NCBI GenBank assembly: GCA_964420075.1
Contig: CAYQRE010000010.1
Coordinates: 77,885 to 141,884 of the forward strand
DNA from: an uncultured Thermoanaerobaculia bacterium
Lineage (GTDB): Bacteria; Acidobacteriota; Thermoanaerobaculia; Multivoradales; SZUA-115
Length of the DNA stretch: 64,000 nt
Reading direction: 5' to 3'
Part shown: piece by piece, positions 40,352-46,589 of the stretch
Position numbering within the stretch: position 1 is the stretch's first letter
Layout of the letters: every line of letters starts with the position of its first letter
Translations under genes and position numbers: made by a program
Notes under the pieces: model-generated
What the model saw: only the letters and a program-made list of their open reading frames with translations
Database searches by the model: none
Told to the model about the DNA's origin: nothing

Positions 40352-40984
40352 TCAGGTGGGCCCGAAGGCCTCGGCGACGATCCCGAGGTCGGCGAGCGCG
40401 GCGTCGAGCCCGGCACGGTGAGACTGGCGGACGGCCAGCTCGAAGGTTACGGCCTCGCCGTAACGCTCGCCGAGGAGCTCGACCTCGGGGGGGTGCACCA
40501 GGCGCTTGACGGCCCCCACTCTCTCGTAGGGCACGGCGAGGCGCAGGTGGTCGAGGGGGTGCCGTTCGCTGGTCGGCAGCATGGCGAGGGCCTCGCGCAG
40601 CGCACCGGCATAGGCCCTCGCGAGGCCGCCCTTGCCGAGCTTGGTGCCCCCAAACCACCGCACCACCACCCCAAGCACGTCCGAGACCTCGGCGCCGCGC
40701 AGCACCCGCAGCATGGGGGCACCGGCGGTGCCGGCCGGCTCGCCGTCGTCGTTGCTGCGCTCGTCGAGCGATGCTGGCGCGCCGACCTGGCCCAGGCGCC
40801 AGGCCCAGCAGTGGTGAGTGGCGTCAGGGAAGTGCGCACGCACCGCGGCCAGCTCGCGCAGTGCTTCCTCGCGATGGGCGACCGGGATGAGCAGGGCCAG
40901 GAAGCGCGAGCCCTTTTCCCGCAGCTCGGCCGAGGCGCGCTCGGCGGCGACGCGATACGGCGGCGCTGGCGGCTCGGCGGGCAC
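40352..40984 (-). CDS. yigZ: YigZ/IMPACT family protein
   Basis: EKGSRFLA, ATHHCWAWR, DDGEPAGTAGAPML, VVRWFGGTKLGKGGLARAY; GTG start at 40984 inferred. Confidence 0.88.
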   Translation of the reverse strand: MPAEPPAPPYRVAAERASAELREKGSRFLALLIPVAHREEALRELAAVRAHFPDATHHCWAWRLGQVGAPASLDERSNDDGEPAGTAGAPMLRVLRGAEVSDVLGVVVRWFGGTKLGKGGLARAYAGALREALAMLPTSERHPLDHLRLAVPYERVGAVKRLVHPPEVELLGERYGEAVTFELAVRQSHRAGLDAALADLGIVAEAFGPT

Positions 40985-40997
40985 CGGCTGGCCGCGC

Positions 40998-42161
40998 TCA
41001 GCGAGCGACGCGCTCGTAGAGGTCCTGGTACTGGCGCACGACGTGGTCCTGGTCGAAGCGCTCGACGACCCGTTGCCGCGCCAGCTCGCCGAAGCGGCGA
41101 TGGCGGTCGGGATCGGTGAGGAGCTCGAGCGCGGCCGCCGCCATGCCGGCGACGTCCCCCACGGGCAGCAGGAAACCCGTCTCGCCGTGGTCCACCACCT
41201 CGGGGAGCCCACCTGCCCGGGCCCCGATCACCGGTACCTCGCAGGCCAGCGCCTCGAGGGCGGCGAGGCCGAAGGACTCGGCGTCGGACGGCAACAGGAA
41301 GAGGTCGGCGCCGATCAGCACCTCTTCGACCAAGGGCAGGTTGCCGATGAAGACGATGCGGTCGCAAGTGCCGAGCTCGCGGCAGCGCTGCTCGACCTTG
41401 GCGCGGTCCGGTCCATCCCCCACCAGCAGCAGGCGGGCCGGCAGCTCGCGGCGCACGCGGTCGAAAGTCTCGATCACGTCGAGCACCCGCTTGACCGGCC
41501 GGAAGTTGGAGATGTGGACGAGGACCTTCTCCCCCGGCTTCGCCCAGCGATGGGCGCAGGGGCCGCCCACGGCCCGCTCGAAGCGACCGGGGTCGATGAA
41601 GTTCGGGATCACCTCGATCGGCATCCCAACCCCGAAGGTCTCGTAGGTCTTGGTGCGCAGCCAGTCGGAGACCGCCGACACCGCGTCGCTCTCGACGATG
41701 CCGTAGCGCGTGGTCTCGAGGTAGGACGGATCGTTGCCGACCAGGGTGATGTCGGTGCCGTGGAGGGTCGTCACCACCGGCATGGGTTGTGGCGTGAGGA
41801 TCTGCCGGGCGAGGACGGCCGAGACGGCGTTGGGCACCGCGTAATGCACGTGCAGCACGTCCAGCCGCTCGTTGCGCGCCACCTCGACCATCTTGGTGGC
41901 GAGCGCCTGCGAGTAGGGCGGGTAGTCGAAGAGCGGGTACCGGGGCACGACCACCTCGTGGTAGTGCAGGTTCGAGAACAGCTGCGGATAGAGCTGCGCC
42001 TCGATCGACGACGGGTTGCCCCACAGCCCGGCGAGGCGCGACGGCAGCGCGTAGCTCAGGATGTGGACCTGGTGCTCGGCGGCGGCGAGGGCCATGGCGA
42101 GCTCCGTGGCCACCACGCCCGAACCGCCGAAGGTCGGGTAGCAGCTGATGCCGATCCTCAT
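40998..42161 (-). CDS. bshA: N-acetyl-alpha-D-glucosaminyl L-malate synthase (GT4)
   Basis: MRIGISCYPTFGGSGVVATEL, LHVHYAVPNA, TTLHGTDITLVG, HISNFRPVKR, ESFGLAALEA. Confidence 0.93.
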   Translation of the reverse strand: MRIGISCYPTFGGSGVVATELAMALAAAEHQVHILSYALPSRLAGLWGNPSSIEAQLYPQLFSNLHYHEVVVPRYPLFDYPPYSQALATKMVEVARNERLDVLHVHYAVPNAVSAVLARQILTPQPMPVVTTLHGTDITLVGNDPSYLETTRYGIVESDAVSAVSDWLRTKTYETFGVGMPIEVIPNFIDPGRFERAVGGPCAHRWAKPGEKVLVHISNFRPVKRVLDVIETFDRVRRELPARLLLVGDGPDRAKVEQRCRELGTCDRIVFIGNLPLVEEVLIGADLFLLPSDAESFGLAALEALACEVPVIGARAGGLPEVVDHGETGFLLPVGDVAGMAAAALELLTDPDRHRRFGELARQRVVERFDQDHVVRQYQDLYERVAR

Positions 42162-42877
42162 CGCACTCCTCCCGGGAGAACGGCGAGGGGGTCAGCCACC
42201 GCGAGCGGCAGCCGGCTCCAGAAGGGCTCGCCGAAGGTGGCGCCGATCATCTCGCCGAAGTGCCGCGCGCGGCCCTCGACGGCCAGCCGGAACTCGGCCG
42301 TCGCCACCTTGGTCACCGGTTCGTCGCGGCGCTCGCCCGGCTGGTGGAGCTGGCTGCGGTAGGCGGCGAGGGCGGCGAGCTTCGCCGGCCAGCCGGCGGT
42401 GGCGTCGACGACGAAGCGGGGCTCGAAGGGGTCGTGCTGCATGTAGGCGAAGAGCGCCGCCGGCCGGTGCGGCTCGCCCTCGCCGCGGCGGCGCAGGCCG
42501 GCGTAGAAGCAGGCGGCCTCGACCAGGCGGTGGGCTCGACCGTGGTCGGGGTGGCGGTCGGCCGGGGTCGGTGCCAGGACGAGCTCCGGGCGATGCCGGC
42601 GCAGAACGCCGATCAGCGCCTCCTCCTCGGCCTCGCCGCTGCGCAGGCGGCCGTCGCCGCAGTCGAGGAAGTCGAGGCTCGCCGCCCCCAACGCCGCCGC
42701 CGCGGCCTCGGCCTCGGCCAGCCGCTCCGCTGCCGTGCCACGGGTCCCCGCCTCACCGCGCGTCAGATGCAGCAGGCCCACTCGCCGCCCCTGGGCCGCG
42801 AGCTGAGCGAGGGTCGCGCCACAGCCGAGCTCCACGTCGTCCGGGTGGGCACCGATGGCGAGCACGTCGAGGGTCAT
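42158..42877 (-). CDS. bshB1: Bacillithiol biosynthesis deacetylase
   Basis: AHPDDVELGCGATL, LTRGEAGTRG, RHPDHG, AYRSQ; GGAGA SD; overlaps the bshA start. Confidence 0.92.
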   Translation of the reverse strand: MTLDVLAIGAHPDDVELGCGATLAQLAAQGRRVGLLHLTRGEAGTRGTAAERLAEAEAAAAALGAASLDFLDCGDGRLRSGEAEEEALIGVLRRHRPELVLAPTPADRHPDHGRAHRLVEAACFYAGLRRRGEGEPHRPAALFAYMQHDPFEPRFVVDATAGWPAKLAALAAYRSQLHQPGERRDEPVTKVATAEFRLAVEGRARHFGEMIGATFGEPFWSRLPLAVADPLAVLPGGVR

Positions 42878-42897
42878 GGCGTCTCCTGGAATCCCCC

Positions 42898-44517
42898 TCA
42901 CACCCGCACCACCTGCAGGCGGCGGGGGTCGAGGGCCATCTGCTCCCAGATGGCGTCGACGACCTCCAGTCCGTAGCGGGCGGGGTAGTGAGCGGTGGTG
43001 ACAATGCGCTCCTGCAGCTTGCCGCCGGGAAGGAGGTGCGCCCGCAGCTGCTCGAGGCGACGGCGCGCCGTCTCGTCGGCGCGGGCGGCGGCGGCGGTGA
43101 GCTTCTCGTTGAAGGTGGTGAGCGCCCGCTCGATGGTCTCGCGGGTCTTGCGGTAGGGGGTCTCGAGGCCGGGGTCGATGGCGAGCGCCTGCTCGCGCAG
43201 CGCCGCCAGCCGGCGCTCGAGCTCGGCCCCGAGATCGTCCGTCGTCGCCAGGCCCTGGCGGGCGGCGAGGCGACGGTCGACCTCGGCGGGGTCTCCCAGC
43301 AGGTGGGCCAGCTCCAGCCCGAGCTGGGAGAGCCAGGTGAGGTGGCGCTCCTCGACGATCGCGACCTGCGGCCGCAAGGTGGTCCACGGCGCCGTGATCC
43401 CCAGCAGCGGGTACGCCGCCGCCACCTGCGCCATGTAGGCGATCTCACCCGGACCCATGACCTGCAACGTGGTACCGAGGACGGCGTCCTGGATCGCCGG
43501 TCGGGCGAGCACACCCGGGCTCACCACCAGCGGGTTGTCCTCCACCAGGGCGAGCAGGTCGGCGACCGGCCGCTCGCGCCCGTCACCACCGCGCAGGGTC
43601 CAGGCCTCCTCTCCCCGCCACTCGATCCGTCGCCGCGCCCCGGCGTCGAGGGCGAAAAGGGGCGAGAGGCCGGGCTGCGGTGCCACCTGCAACGCGAATC
43701 CCCGCGCCTCGATGCGGCTGTCGGCGGCCCGGTAGGCCGCCTCCAGGGCGGCGCGCTCGCGGATGAGGCGCAGCAGGTGAGGCCTCTCGGCGGCTTTGAG
43801 CTCGGGGAGCTGCGCGTCGAGGAAGAGGGGCGAGCGCGCCCCCAGCAGGTGCACCATCAGGCGAGGGAACGCCTCGCCGAAGCGGGCGCTCGGCCGGTAC
43901 CAGCTGGCCACCTGCTGCCAGAAAGCGGTGTTGCTCGGCCCGTTGGGCAGCTCGCTGAAGCGGGCGAGCGCCGCCTCGACCCCGGGGCCGAAGCTGCGCG
44001 CCCCCACTGGCAGCAGGGGCGACGGGTCGGGACCGAGGTCACAGCTCGCGAGCTCGCCCGGCGTGGGCACCGCGGCGGTCGAGACCTCGGCCCAGTCGTG
44101 GTCCTCCGTCGCCACCCAGAAGACGGCGACGGCGCTCTCGCCGGCCGCCTCGATGGCCGCCGCCCAACGGGCCGCGGCGATCGCCTTCGAGAGGGTGAGC
44201 AGGGGGCCGCCGAAGAGGCCTGGCTGTTGGCCGGTGACCACCACGCGAGTGTGCGGGTCGGCCAGCTTGGCCGCCAGCTCATCCGCTGCTGGATGGCCGT
44301 AGGCCCGGTTGGCGGCGGCGAGGCCGGCGGCCAGCGCACGCCGTTCGACGGCGGGCGGCGGGCCGCTCGGCAGCGTGCCCGGGGGCAGGTGGCGCAGCGG
44401 CGCCAGCAGGTCGGTGTGCCGGCCGTCGAGGAAGGCTGCCGGCAGGGCACGCAGGCGGCCCAGGGCGACGAGGTCGAGGTCGCCGAAGGGCGGCGACGGG
44501 GTCTGCGGGTCGTTCAT
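42898..44517 (-). CDS. bshC: Bacillithiol cysteine-adding enzyme
   Basis: VVTGQQPGLFGGPL, VFWVATEDHDWAEV, SPGVLARPAIQD, GPGEIAY, LQER. Confidence 0.9.
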   Translation of the reverse strand: MNDPQTPSPPFGDLDLVALGRLRALPAAFLDGRHTDLLAPLRHLPPGTLPSGPPPAVERRALAAGLAAANRAYGHPAADELAAKLADPHTRVVVTGQQPGLFGGPLLTLSKAIAAARWAAAIEAAGESAVAVFWVATEDHDWAEVSTAAVPTPGELASCDLGPDPSPLLPVGARSFGPGVEAALARFSELPNGPSNTAFWQQVASWYRPSARFGEAFPRLMVHLLGARSPLFLDAQLPELKAAERPHLLRLIRERAALEAAYRAADSRIEARGFALQVAPQPGLSPLFALDAGARRRIEWRGEEAWTLRGGDGRERPVADLLALVEDNPLVVSPGVLARPAIQDAVLGTTLQVMGPGEIAYMAQVAAAYPLLGITAPWTTLRPQVAIVEERHLTWLSQLGLELAHLLGDPAEVDRRLAARQGLATTDDLGAELERRLAALREQALAIDPGLETPYRKTRETIERALTTFNEKLTAAAARADETARRRLEQLRAHLLPGGKLQERIVTTAHYPARYGLEVVDAIWEQMALDPRRLQVVRV

Positions 44518-44524
44518 CGCAAGC

Positions 44525-45241
44525 TCAGGTCTTTCTCGCCAGCAGGATCATCCGCTCGCTGTCCGCCGAGTAGGTCTCGCCGTCGAAGGCGCCGTAGGCA
44601 GCCTCCAGCTCGAAGCCGGCCCAGCCGAGCCCGTTTCGCGCCTCGTCGAGGCGGTAGGCCCGCACGCTTTCGAGGTAGCTGCGCGCCGGTTCGCCGGCGC
44701 GGCCCACCCGGATGCGTTTGTTGATGCGCTGGGTCGCCGGGTCGTACCAGCGCTCGAGCTCCACCTCGCGACCGGAGACCACCTTGCTCTCGCGCGGCTT
44801 GAGGCCGCGGATCGCTGGTTCCGGGTTGAGCAGATCGAGGAGAAACCAGCCGCCGGGGGCCAGCACCCGCGCCACCTCTTGGAGGACGAGGAAGTTCTCC
44901 CGCTCGCTCTCGAAGTAGCCGAAGGAGGTGAAGAAGTTGAGCACCCAGCCGAAGCTCGCGAGCCGGAACGGCAAGCGTCGCATGTCGCCGCAAGCCCGCC
45001 GGCTGCCGGCGCGGTGGGCGAGCAAGGTGAGCGAGAGGTCGATGCCCACGGCGACGTGGCCGCGGGCGGTGAGCGCGTCGGAGTGCCGGCCGGCCCCGCA
45101 GGCGAGATCGAGGACCGGCGCCGGCACCGGCGCCGGCAGCCTCTCCACGACGAAGCCCACCTGGTGCTCTGCCTCGTCGCGGTCGCGGTGGGCGTAGAGG
45201 TCGAGATAGTCCTCGCCGAACCACTCGCGGTACCAGGTCAC
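44525..45241 (-). CDS. Class I SAM-dependent methyltransferase, first gene of the bsh operon
   Basis: VLDLACGAGRH, GIDLS, GDMRRLP, FFTSFGYF; 7-nt gap to bshC; TATCAT 8 nt upstream of GTG. Confidence 0.88.
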   Translation of the reverse strand: MTWYREWFGEDYLDLYAHRDRDEAEHQVGFVVERLPAPVPAPVLDLACGAGRHSDALTARGHVAVGIDLSLTLLAHRAGSRRACGDMRRLPFRLASFGWVLNFFTSFGYFESERENFLVLQEVARVLAPGGWFLLDLLNPEPAIRGLKPRESKVVSGREVELERWYDPATQRINKRIRVGRAGEPARSYLESVRAYRLDEARNGLGWAGFELEAAYGAFDGETYSADSERMILLARKT

Positions 45242-45324
45242 GGTGGCGGATGATAGCGCGCCCGCCGCGGCACCCGGTGCGCAGGCGGGCGCCGTGGCCG
45301 CGAGCCGCGCTATCCTCTGGCGCC

Positions 45325-45594
45325 ATGACGAGAAGGCAGGTCCTCCTCGGCTGCTTTGCGGCCGGCTTCGCCGCCCACTGCCTGGCGGCCACCGCCGTCT
45401 GGCGGGGCTGGGCCCACGGCACGCGCGGGGTCTGGCTCGTTTGGATGGACTTTCCGCTCTCTCTGCTGTGGCTTTCCGCTCGCGGGCCGGCGCTCTTCGC
45501 CTGGACCCTCCTCGGCGGCGGCCTGTGGTGGGGCCTGCTCACCGCCGGGCTCGCCTGGCTCACCGGCCGGTTGCTCTCCGGCCGCCGGGGCTGA
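45325..45594 (+). CDS. Small membrane protein (89 aa)
   Basis: TATCCT 8 nt before ATG; three hydrophobic Trp/Gly-rich segments; precedes dus by 11 nt. Confidence 0.65.
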   Translation: MTRRQVLLGCFAAGFAAHCLAATAVWRGWAHGTRGVWLVWMDFPLSLLWLSARGPALFAWTLLGGGLWWGLLTAGLAWLTGRLLSGRRG

Positions 45595-45605
45595 GGGACC
45601 GCCGG

Positions 45606-46589
45606 ATGCTCACGCTCGGCTCGCTCGCCATCGACCCGCCGCTCGTCCTCGCCCCGATGGCCGGGGTCACCGACCGCGACTTCCGGCTGATCCTGCGCCG
45701 GATCGGCGGCGTCGGCCTCCTGACCATGGAGTTCGTCTCTGCCAGGGGCCTGGTCCGCGGCGACCGCGGGGCACACGGGGTGATGGTCTTCAGCGCCGAG
45801 GAACGCCCGCTCGCCATCCAGATCTACGGCTCCGACGCTGACACCATGGCTGCCGCGGCCGGCCTGGTCGAGGCCGCGGGCGCCGACGTCTGCGACATCA
45901 ACATGGGCTGCCCGGCCAACAAGGTGCTGGCCGGCTGCGCCGGCGCCGCTCTGATGGGCGACCTGCGGCGAGCCCGCGAGATCATCACGCGGGTGCGGCG
46001 GGCCACCCGCCTGCCGCTCACCGTCAAGTTCCGCCTCGGCCTCGACGAGCCCCGTCGCAACTACCTGGAGCTCGGCCGGCTCTGCGAGGCCGAGGGCGTC
46101 GACGCCGTCACCCTGCATGGCCGCACGGCGCGGCAGATGTTCCGCGGCGAGGCCGCCTGGGAACCGATTGCCCGCCTCAAGGCGGCGCTCGCGATCCCGG
46201 TGATCGGCAATGGGGACGTCGAGAGCCCCGAGGACGCTGTCGCCCTGCTGCGCCAGACGGGTTGCGACGGGGTGATGATCGGGCGGGCCGCCACGCGGGA
46301 CCCTTGGATCTTCCGGCGGATCGCCGCCCGGCTCGCCGGTAGCGCCTTCCAGGCGCCCACCCTCGCCGAGCGCTGCCAGCTGATCGCCGACCACTTCGCG
46401 ACGGTGGTCGCTCGCGACGAGGAGGGCGAGGCCCTGCACAAGCTGCGCGTCTTCACCCGCTGGTACAGCCTCGGCCTGCCCGACGGCGCCCGCCTGCGCC
46501 AGCAGATGCAGCAGCTACCGACCACCGGGGCCTTCCTCGCTGCCGTCGACGGCTACTTCGCCGACCTCCTCGCCCGGGAGGCGGCTTGA
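45606..46589 (+). CDS. dusB: tRNA-dihydrouridine synthase (DusB-like)
   Basis: LAPMAGVTD, QIYG, DINMGCP, TVKFRLG, HGRT, GNGDV, DGVMIGRA. Confidence 0.9.
   Translation: MLTLGSLAIDPPLVLAPMAGVTDRDFRLILRRIGGVGLLTMEFVSARGLVRGDRGAHGVMVFSAEERPLAIQIYGSDADTMAAAAGLVEAAGADVCDINMGCPANKVLAGCAGAALMGDLRRAREIITRVRRATRLPLTVKFRLGLDEPRRNYLELGRLCEAEGVDAVTLHGRTARQMFRGEAAWEPIARLKAALAIPVIGNGDVESPEDAVALLRQTGCDGVMIGRAATRDPWIFRRIAARLAGSAFQAPTLAERCQLIADHFATVVARDEEGEALHKLRVFTRWYSLGLPDGARLRQQMQQLPTTGAFLAAVDGYFADLLAREAA

Follow-up and report, generated by a model that had tools for sequence, protein, structure and literature searches.

A class I methyltransferase gene heading the bacillithiol genes of an uncultured Thermoanaerobaculia bacterium is a predicted nmbA

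Does the methyltransferase gene in front of the three bacillithiol (BSH) genes of an uncultured Thermoanaerobaculia bacterium encode NmbA, and should the thiol of this lineage then be expected as N-methyl-bacillithiol (N-Me-BSH)? The locus lies in a window of 64,000 nucleotides (nt), the whole stretch of DNA that was analysed (contig CAYQRE010000010.1 of assembly GCA_964420075.1, positions 77,885 to 141,884). An earlier note, made from the letters of this DNA, had read the gene as an NmbA-like methyltransferase heading a compact unit with all three bacillithiol genes. The genes nmbA-bshC-bshB1-bshA, with a yigZ-like gene as a probable addition, are co-oriented and probably co-transcribed as an operon, and a major low-molecular-weight thiol predicted for the host is, very probably, N-Me-BSH. 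The four genes are as follows, in the coordinates of the window.

44525-45241, minus strand: nmbA, class I S-adenosylmethionine (SAM)-dependent methyltransferase, predicted bacillithiol cysteine-N-methyltransferase; 238 amino acids (aa), GTG start; Pfam Methyltransf_11/25
42898-44517, minus strand: bshC, bacillithiol biosynthesis cysteine-adding enzyme; 539 aa; TIGR03998; Pfam Rossmann-like_BshC and CC_BshC
42158-42877, minus strand: bshB1, N-acetylglucosamine (GlcNAc)-malate deacetylase; 239 aa, ATG start; TIGR04001; Pfam PIG-L
40998-42161, minus strand: bshA, N-acetyl-alpha-D-glucosaminyl L-malate synthase (glycosyltransferase family 4, GT4); 387 aa; TIGR03999

As read in the sequence, 7 nt separate the stop codon of nmbA from the ATG of bshC, 20 nt lie between bshC and bshB1, and the stop of bshB1 overlaps the start of bshA by 4 nt (ATGA). 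The upstream neighbour of nmbA, a dihydrouridine synthase (Dus) gene, is divergent. The compact unit headed by the methyltransferase is present as first described, with four minus-strand genes within 40998-45241. The region has a G+C content of 72% and numerous spurious open frames, among which the family scans single out these four as genuine minus-strand genes. The N-terminus of nmbA agrees with the orthologue consensus MAWYREWFGEEY, and a longer open reading frame (ORF) of 409 aa for bshB1 was rejected as merely open frame upstream. Independent contigs from wastewater and activated-sludge metagenomes span every gene junction with zero differences, so the gene order does not stem from misassembly, and DNA of the host recurs across activated-sludge and wastewater metagenomes of several studies. 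Two runs labelled 'METAGENOMIC RNA-Seq' (X19 and X20) hold small parts of the locus as short contigs; these are possibly DNA, show neither strand nor expression level, and were not used as evidence.

Among the structures of the Protein Data Bank (PDB), the top match of the window methyltransferase was 9RI2, the crystal structure of NmbA from Chlorobaculum tepidum (CtNmbA; Hammerstad 2025, PMC12719100), with an E value of 7e-33 and a phmmer score of 117.5 bits for residues 2-236 aligned with 15-260, and the second was CypM, with an E value of 1.4e-9. The identity to CtNmbA or Chlorobaculum NmbA was 36-38% (38% in the genome search, 36% in the MAFFT alignment). The published homologue limits are a BLAST E value of 1e-20 or lower for the RefSeq search and 35-95% identity for the set used for conservation and similarity network (PMC12719100), and the window protein lies within both. 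In the searches and the tree, C. tepidum NmbA was represented by a Chlorobaculum orthologue, a 266-aa protein (L146:1480-2280, minus strand) of the Chlorobaculum genome G112 with a full-length identity of about 91% to 9RI2. When this orthologue was searched against the genome of the window, the best match was the window gene (119 bits, 38% identity), followed by a match of 47.6 bits; when the window protein was searched against G112, the best match was the NmbA orthologue (120 bits), followed by a match of 27.8 bits.

A family profile (hidden Markov model, HMM) was built from relatives of the window protein, a diverse set of 40 drawn from 1.84 billion cluster representatives, of which 561 matched at an E value of 1e-30 or better. 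Searched against the PDB, the profile gave 233 bits for 9RI2 and 92.8 bits for the next solved methyltransferase chain, and searched against whole genomes it gave 245-262 bits for family members and at most 75 bits for paralogues; across this wide separation, CtNmbA sorts with the members. In a maximum-likelihood tree of 140 sequences, 131 NmbA-family members stood apart from 9 paralogues with a support of 97 in the Shimodaira-Hasegawa-like approximate likelihood ratio test (SH-aLRT). The family members include the window protein, Acidobacteriota, Gemmatimonadota, Paenibacillus and the Chlorobaculum group, and groups within the family mostly track phyla. The window protein retains all 35 family columns with a conservation of at least 93% among the 131 members, including motif I VLDLACGAG, FTSFGYF with the aromatic residues of the motif IV-V loop (Ct Y134/F135; motifs according to PMC12719100), R52 (Ct R70), K175 (Ct K198) and W3 (Ct W16). 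Many of these columns are different in the paralogues, as are the residues R52, H53, K175, D136 and R230. The genome of the window carries a single copy of nmbA. Taken from sequence, this evidence supports the assignment of the window methyltransferase as an NmbA orthologue, and the NmbA-like identity suggested in the earlier note agrees both with the reciprocal best matches and with the grouping in the tree.

Compared with C. tepidum NmbA (CT1040), the window protein is a full-length homologue with the class I SAM fold, sharing motif I in the form VLD(I/L)AxGxG, the SFGYF adenine-stacking loop, the equivalents of Ct R70, K198 and W16, and the co-occurrence with bshA, bshB and bshC, but it is 28 aa shorter (238 aa against 266 aa). 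NmbA of Paenibacillus polymyxa (PpNmbA) belongs to the same family, and 14 Paenibacillus homologues, from loci of the genus other than that of P. polymyxa itself, are 38-43% identical to the window protein and fall within the NmbA clade. No NmbA-specific match for the window protein was obtained from NCBIfam release 20, which returned weak sub-cut-off matches only (daptide methyltransferase, 51 bits against a cut-off of 175). This would explain the public records of close homologues, which are named merely 'class I SAM-dependent methyltransferase'.

The complete bshA/bshB/bshC set co-occurs with nmbA in one predicted operon, and all three products score above the cut-offs of the NCBIfam equivalogs: BshA with 495.9 bits for TIGR03999 (cut-off 273.7), BshB1 with 247.1 bits for TIGR04001 (cut-off 182.5) and BshC with 300 bits for TIGR03998 (cut-off 265.8). 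BshB1 carries the AHPDD and HPDH motifs and is 64-82% identical to the BshB1 proteins of relatives. Elsewhere in the genome there are a bacilliredoxin BrxA/B (206.7 bits against a cut-off of 100), a YtxJ/BrxC protein (95.9 bits against 77.25) and a YpdA/Bdr-like candidate for bacillithiol disulfide reductase (G000:C45:23255-24226), whose 336.2 bits are slightly below the TIGR04018 cut-off of 339.9. To judge from its family matches, this set fits what would be expected of a bacillithiol user. A weaker second YpdA/Bdr-like copy (G000:C25) has an in-frame TGA. By the same equivalogs, bshA, bshB1 and bshC are shared with the pathway of Bacillus subtilis, and BrxA/B, YtxJ and YpdA have counterparts in the genome of the window. 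In B. subtilis, bshB1-bshA and bshC occupy separate operons, whereas the genome of the window packs all three bsh genes together with nmbA in one compact unit; we know of no nmbA in B. subtilis.

What these enzymes would do can be stated by analogy with characterised relatives. Reduced BSH is a substrate of both CtNmbA and P. polymyxa NmbA in vitro, and neither enzyme methylates bacillithiol disulfide (BSSB), glutathione (GSH) or glycine (PMC12719100); deletion of CT1040 abolishes N-Me-BSH, with accumulation of BSH in the nmbA mutant (PMC6282198). On this model, BshA would join UDP-GlcNAc (UDP, uridine diphosphate) to L-malate, BshB1 would remove the acetyl group, BshC would add cysteine to give BSH, and the NmbA orthologue would then use SAM to methylate reduced BSH at the amino nitrogen of its cysteine, with N-Me-BSH as the product. 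The substrate and the product of the enzyme are predicted from these relatives, as is the co-transcription of the genes.

To place the linkage in the lineage, 40 genomes of the same order were searched and 20 loci were fetched. Of these 40 relatives, 33 have a full-length nmbA orthologue (53-71% identity, no stops), and BshC was found in 38, with every nmbA-bearing relative among them. The genes nmbA-bshC-bshB1 are colinear in 20 of the 20 loci and bshA comes next in 18. Most of them also retain the divergent Dus on one side and yigZ, downstream, on the other. An unlinked arrangement in relatives, together with a grouping among unrelated methyltransferases, had been named beforehand as a sign against an NmbA-like enzyme, and what was found instead is linkage to the bsh genes throughout these 20 loci. 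Five BshC-positive relatives (L039-L043, from genomes G014, G024, G033, G023 and G011) are without nmbA and retain Dus, divergent, next to bshC. In the Dus-bshC spacers of these five relatives, the search for an nmbA remnant gave nothing above noise, so gain and loss of nmbA are not separable in that way. In three nmbA-less relatives, all of one genus, BshB1 is also absent from the cluster, and their BshC and BshA are 43-47% identical to those of the window.

Beyond the order, the linkage was counted in a scan of GTDB species genomes that gave 78 testable loci. The nmbA gene lies immediately 5' of bshC in 57 of these 78 loci, from about ten phyla, including all 25 loci of Acidobacteriota and all 22 of Gemmatimonadota. 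One or two cases each were found in Planctomycetota, Chloroflexota, Zixibacteria, Hydrogenedentota, Latescibacterota, Eisenbacteria and Krumholzibacteriota. In Bacillota the adjacency was found in one metagenome-assembled genome (MAG), and nmbA was unlinked in 15 of 16 loci (Paenibacillus, Kroppenstedtia), with no adjacency in any of the 14 Paenibacillus loci. The two genes are also unlinked in Ignavibacteriota and in all 29 loci from the phylum that contains Chlorobaculum; in Chlorobaculum, nmbA (CT1040) lies away from bshC (CT1558), whereas nmbA of the window heads the bsh operon. In a Planctomycetota MAG (L113, 7001-8823), an NmbA homologue is followed directly by bshA and not by bshC, a variant of the linkage.

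Two proteins, P0140 (807 aa) and P0232 (670 aa), are predicted methyltransferase-BshC fusions, although they could be gene-calling read-throughs. L119 was rejected as an NmbA-BshC fusion, consisting of two ORFs that overlap by 4 nt. A further protein, P0210 (470 aa), is predicted to join an NmbA-like domain to a metallo-beta-lactamase-fold domain, and is possibly a thiol-dependent glyoxalase II-like enzyme. In about ten phyla, the gene directly behind nmbA is bshC rather than bshA or bshB, and fusions are predicted as well; NmbA and BshC could thus conceivably work as a physical pair, either by the hand-over of nascent BSH or by NmbA aiding cysteine ligation, an idea to which we give a low probability. 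To our knowledge, the BshC reaction has never been reconstituted in vitro. If the two proteins did form such a pair, a natural fusion or a co-expressed pair could be a reagent that makes BshC chemistry tractable.

The AlphaFold2 (AF2) model of the window protein has a predicted local distance difference test (pLDDT) value of 85, with the cap strands present and a template modelling (TM) score of 0.70 to 9RI2. The crystal structure shows an unusual beta-strand topology of the cap domain and a narrow 'basket', and its authors report that AlphaFold mispredicts the topology of the NmbA cap (PMC12719100). Compared with CypM and other cap-bearing N-methyltransferases, the model gave Foldseek E values of 1e-20 to 1e-14 and TM scores of 0.69-0.80. 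CypM (7WZG), DesVI (3BXO), TylM1 and 3D2L are small N-methyltransferases that share the four-strand beta cap and the overall fold, but they match the window protein in sequence at E values of 1e-9 or weaker, score 83-93 bits with the family profile compared with 233 bits for NmbA, and have no link to bsh genes. The structure comparison did not separate NmbA from CypM-type enzymes, and the sequence and profile evidence was therefore relied on.

The remaining features adjoin the four genes on either side.

40352-40984, minus strand: yigZ-like gene (UPF0029 and DUF1949); PF01205 at 1.3e-34, PF09186; GTG start inferred
45242-45599, no strand: intergenic or leader segment separating the divergent genes nmbA and Dus, presumed promoter region; the Dus domain begins near 45650

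The yigZ-like gene follows the stop codon of bshA after 13 nt on the same strand. Most relatives of the same order, and several other Acidobacteriota as well, have it in this place after bshA, and it is probably a fifth member of the operon; it belongs to the IMPACT family. On the other side, the Pfam domain of Dus starts at residue 136 of the ORF at 45243-46589, with about 135 open codons preceding it. Another frame between nmbA and the Dus domain, at 45250-45594, begins with the signal-peptide-like MTRRQVLLGCFAAGFAA. One terminator-like site, within nmbA, was rejected because the number of such sites equals the chance expectation.

Several findings weigh against the prediction of an N-Me-BSH operon, and they are considered here with the explanations that they would favour. 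The enzyme might belong to the NmbA family and still have another BSH-related acceptor or product, such as cysteine or glucosaminyl-malate (GlcN-malate) before ligation, a dimethylated amine or a BSH conjugate. Both characterised enzymes come from lineages in which nmbA does not adjoin bshC (Chlorobia and Paenibacillus), which is part of the residual doubt about the chemistry, and the identity to these enzymes is just 36-44%, for the window protein and for the operon-linked Acidobacteriota clade as a whole. Ct H31, which is among the side chains adjusted for docking (PMC12719100), is replaced by Ala17 in the window protein, at a position outside the near-invariant family columns. NmbA can also methylate a secondary amine in vitro (PMC12719100), and the tight coupling to bshC, including the predicted fusions, would fit an action near ligation. 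Against such an acceptor, however, the near-invariant residues are all kept, including Ct R70, K198 and W16, which are proposed to line the BSH pocket; N-methylcysteine has never been seen in C. tepidum, in which the nmbA mutant accumulates BSH (PMC6282198); and the tree offers no hint of a separate long-branched subfamily. A different acceptor or product is thus considered unlikely, and methylation of BSH itself is preferred.

With respect to transcription, the adjacent genes might not form one unit, or nmbA might be silent, in which case mainly unmethylated BSH would be made. Neither a sigma-70-like promoter nor a terminator between the genes turned up in a consensus scan, so the boundaries of the operon are taken from spacing and synteny, and the five BshC-positive relatives without nmbA indicate that this lineage can dispense with methylation. 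The gaps of 7, 20, -4 and 13 nt nevertheless leave scant room for internal promoters, and the nmbA frame is intact and under conservation, with 53-71% identity across the order and no stops, which makes separate transcription or a silent nmbA very unlikely. As regards the identity of the enzyme, Foldseek against the PDB ranks CypM (7WZG) slightly above 9RI2 for the AF2 model, a result that is not discriminating. Alternatively, a class I SAM enzyme unrelated to NmbA, such as a natural-product N-methyltransferase or one acting on ribosomally synthesized and post-translationally modified peptides (RiPPs), might lie beside the bsh genes by chance. This would be in keeping with a predicted fold that is as CypM-like as NmbA-like, with the weak NCBIfam matches and with the generic public annotation. 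This explanation is contradicted by the reciprocal best matches, by the gap of 140 bits between 9RI2 and every other solved methyltransferase in the family profile search, and by the linkage, which all 20 relatives keep and which extends to about ten phyla. It is already largely refuted, and hardly any chance is left to it. The reading as an operon for N-Me-BSH is therefore retained.

The earlier note had taken the direct linkage as support for an N-Me-BSH pathway outside Chlorobi. The linkage is indeed conserved, but the candidate pathway outside Chlorobi is not new, because NmbA had been predicted in Acidobacteria, Bacteroidota, Bacillota, Gemmatimonadota and other phyla in 2018 and 2025 (Hiras 2018, PMC6282198; Hammerstad 2025, PMC12719100). 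According to the earlier of these studies, about a third of the BSH-positive Acidobacteria carry an nmbA orthologue (PMC6282198), and the later one reported the full pathway in 1,765 species, with a RefSeq-based count of NmbA in 4 of 51 BSH-positive Acidobacteriota species and with Thermoanaerobaculum aquaticum as BSH-only (PMC12719100 and its supplement). The locus of the window adds another example of a known pathway and leaves the knowledge of that pathway unchanged. The linkage of nmbA to bshC appears to be undescribed in the literature searched, in which the papers mentioning both genes say nothing of operon, adjacency or fusion.

The linkage is a modest point. The NmbA family is sharply separable by profile score despite its generic names. 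The adjacency of nmbA and bshC offers a simple rule for annotation pipelines, which now give such genes generic methyltransferase names. Because nmbA directly precedes bshC in about ten phyla, the functional link between NmbA and BSH gains independent genomic support. With nmbA in 33 of 40 relatives of the same order, the RefSeq figure of 4 of 51 Acidobacteriota species (PMC12719100) understates the uncultured part of the phylum. N-methyl-bacillithiol, in place of plain bacillithiol, becomes the predicted thiol of this uncultured Thermoanaerobaculia lineage of wastewater.

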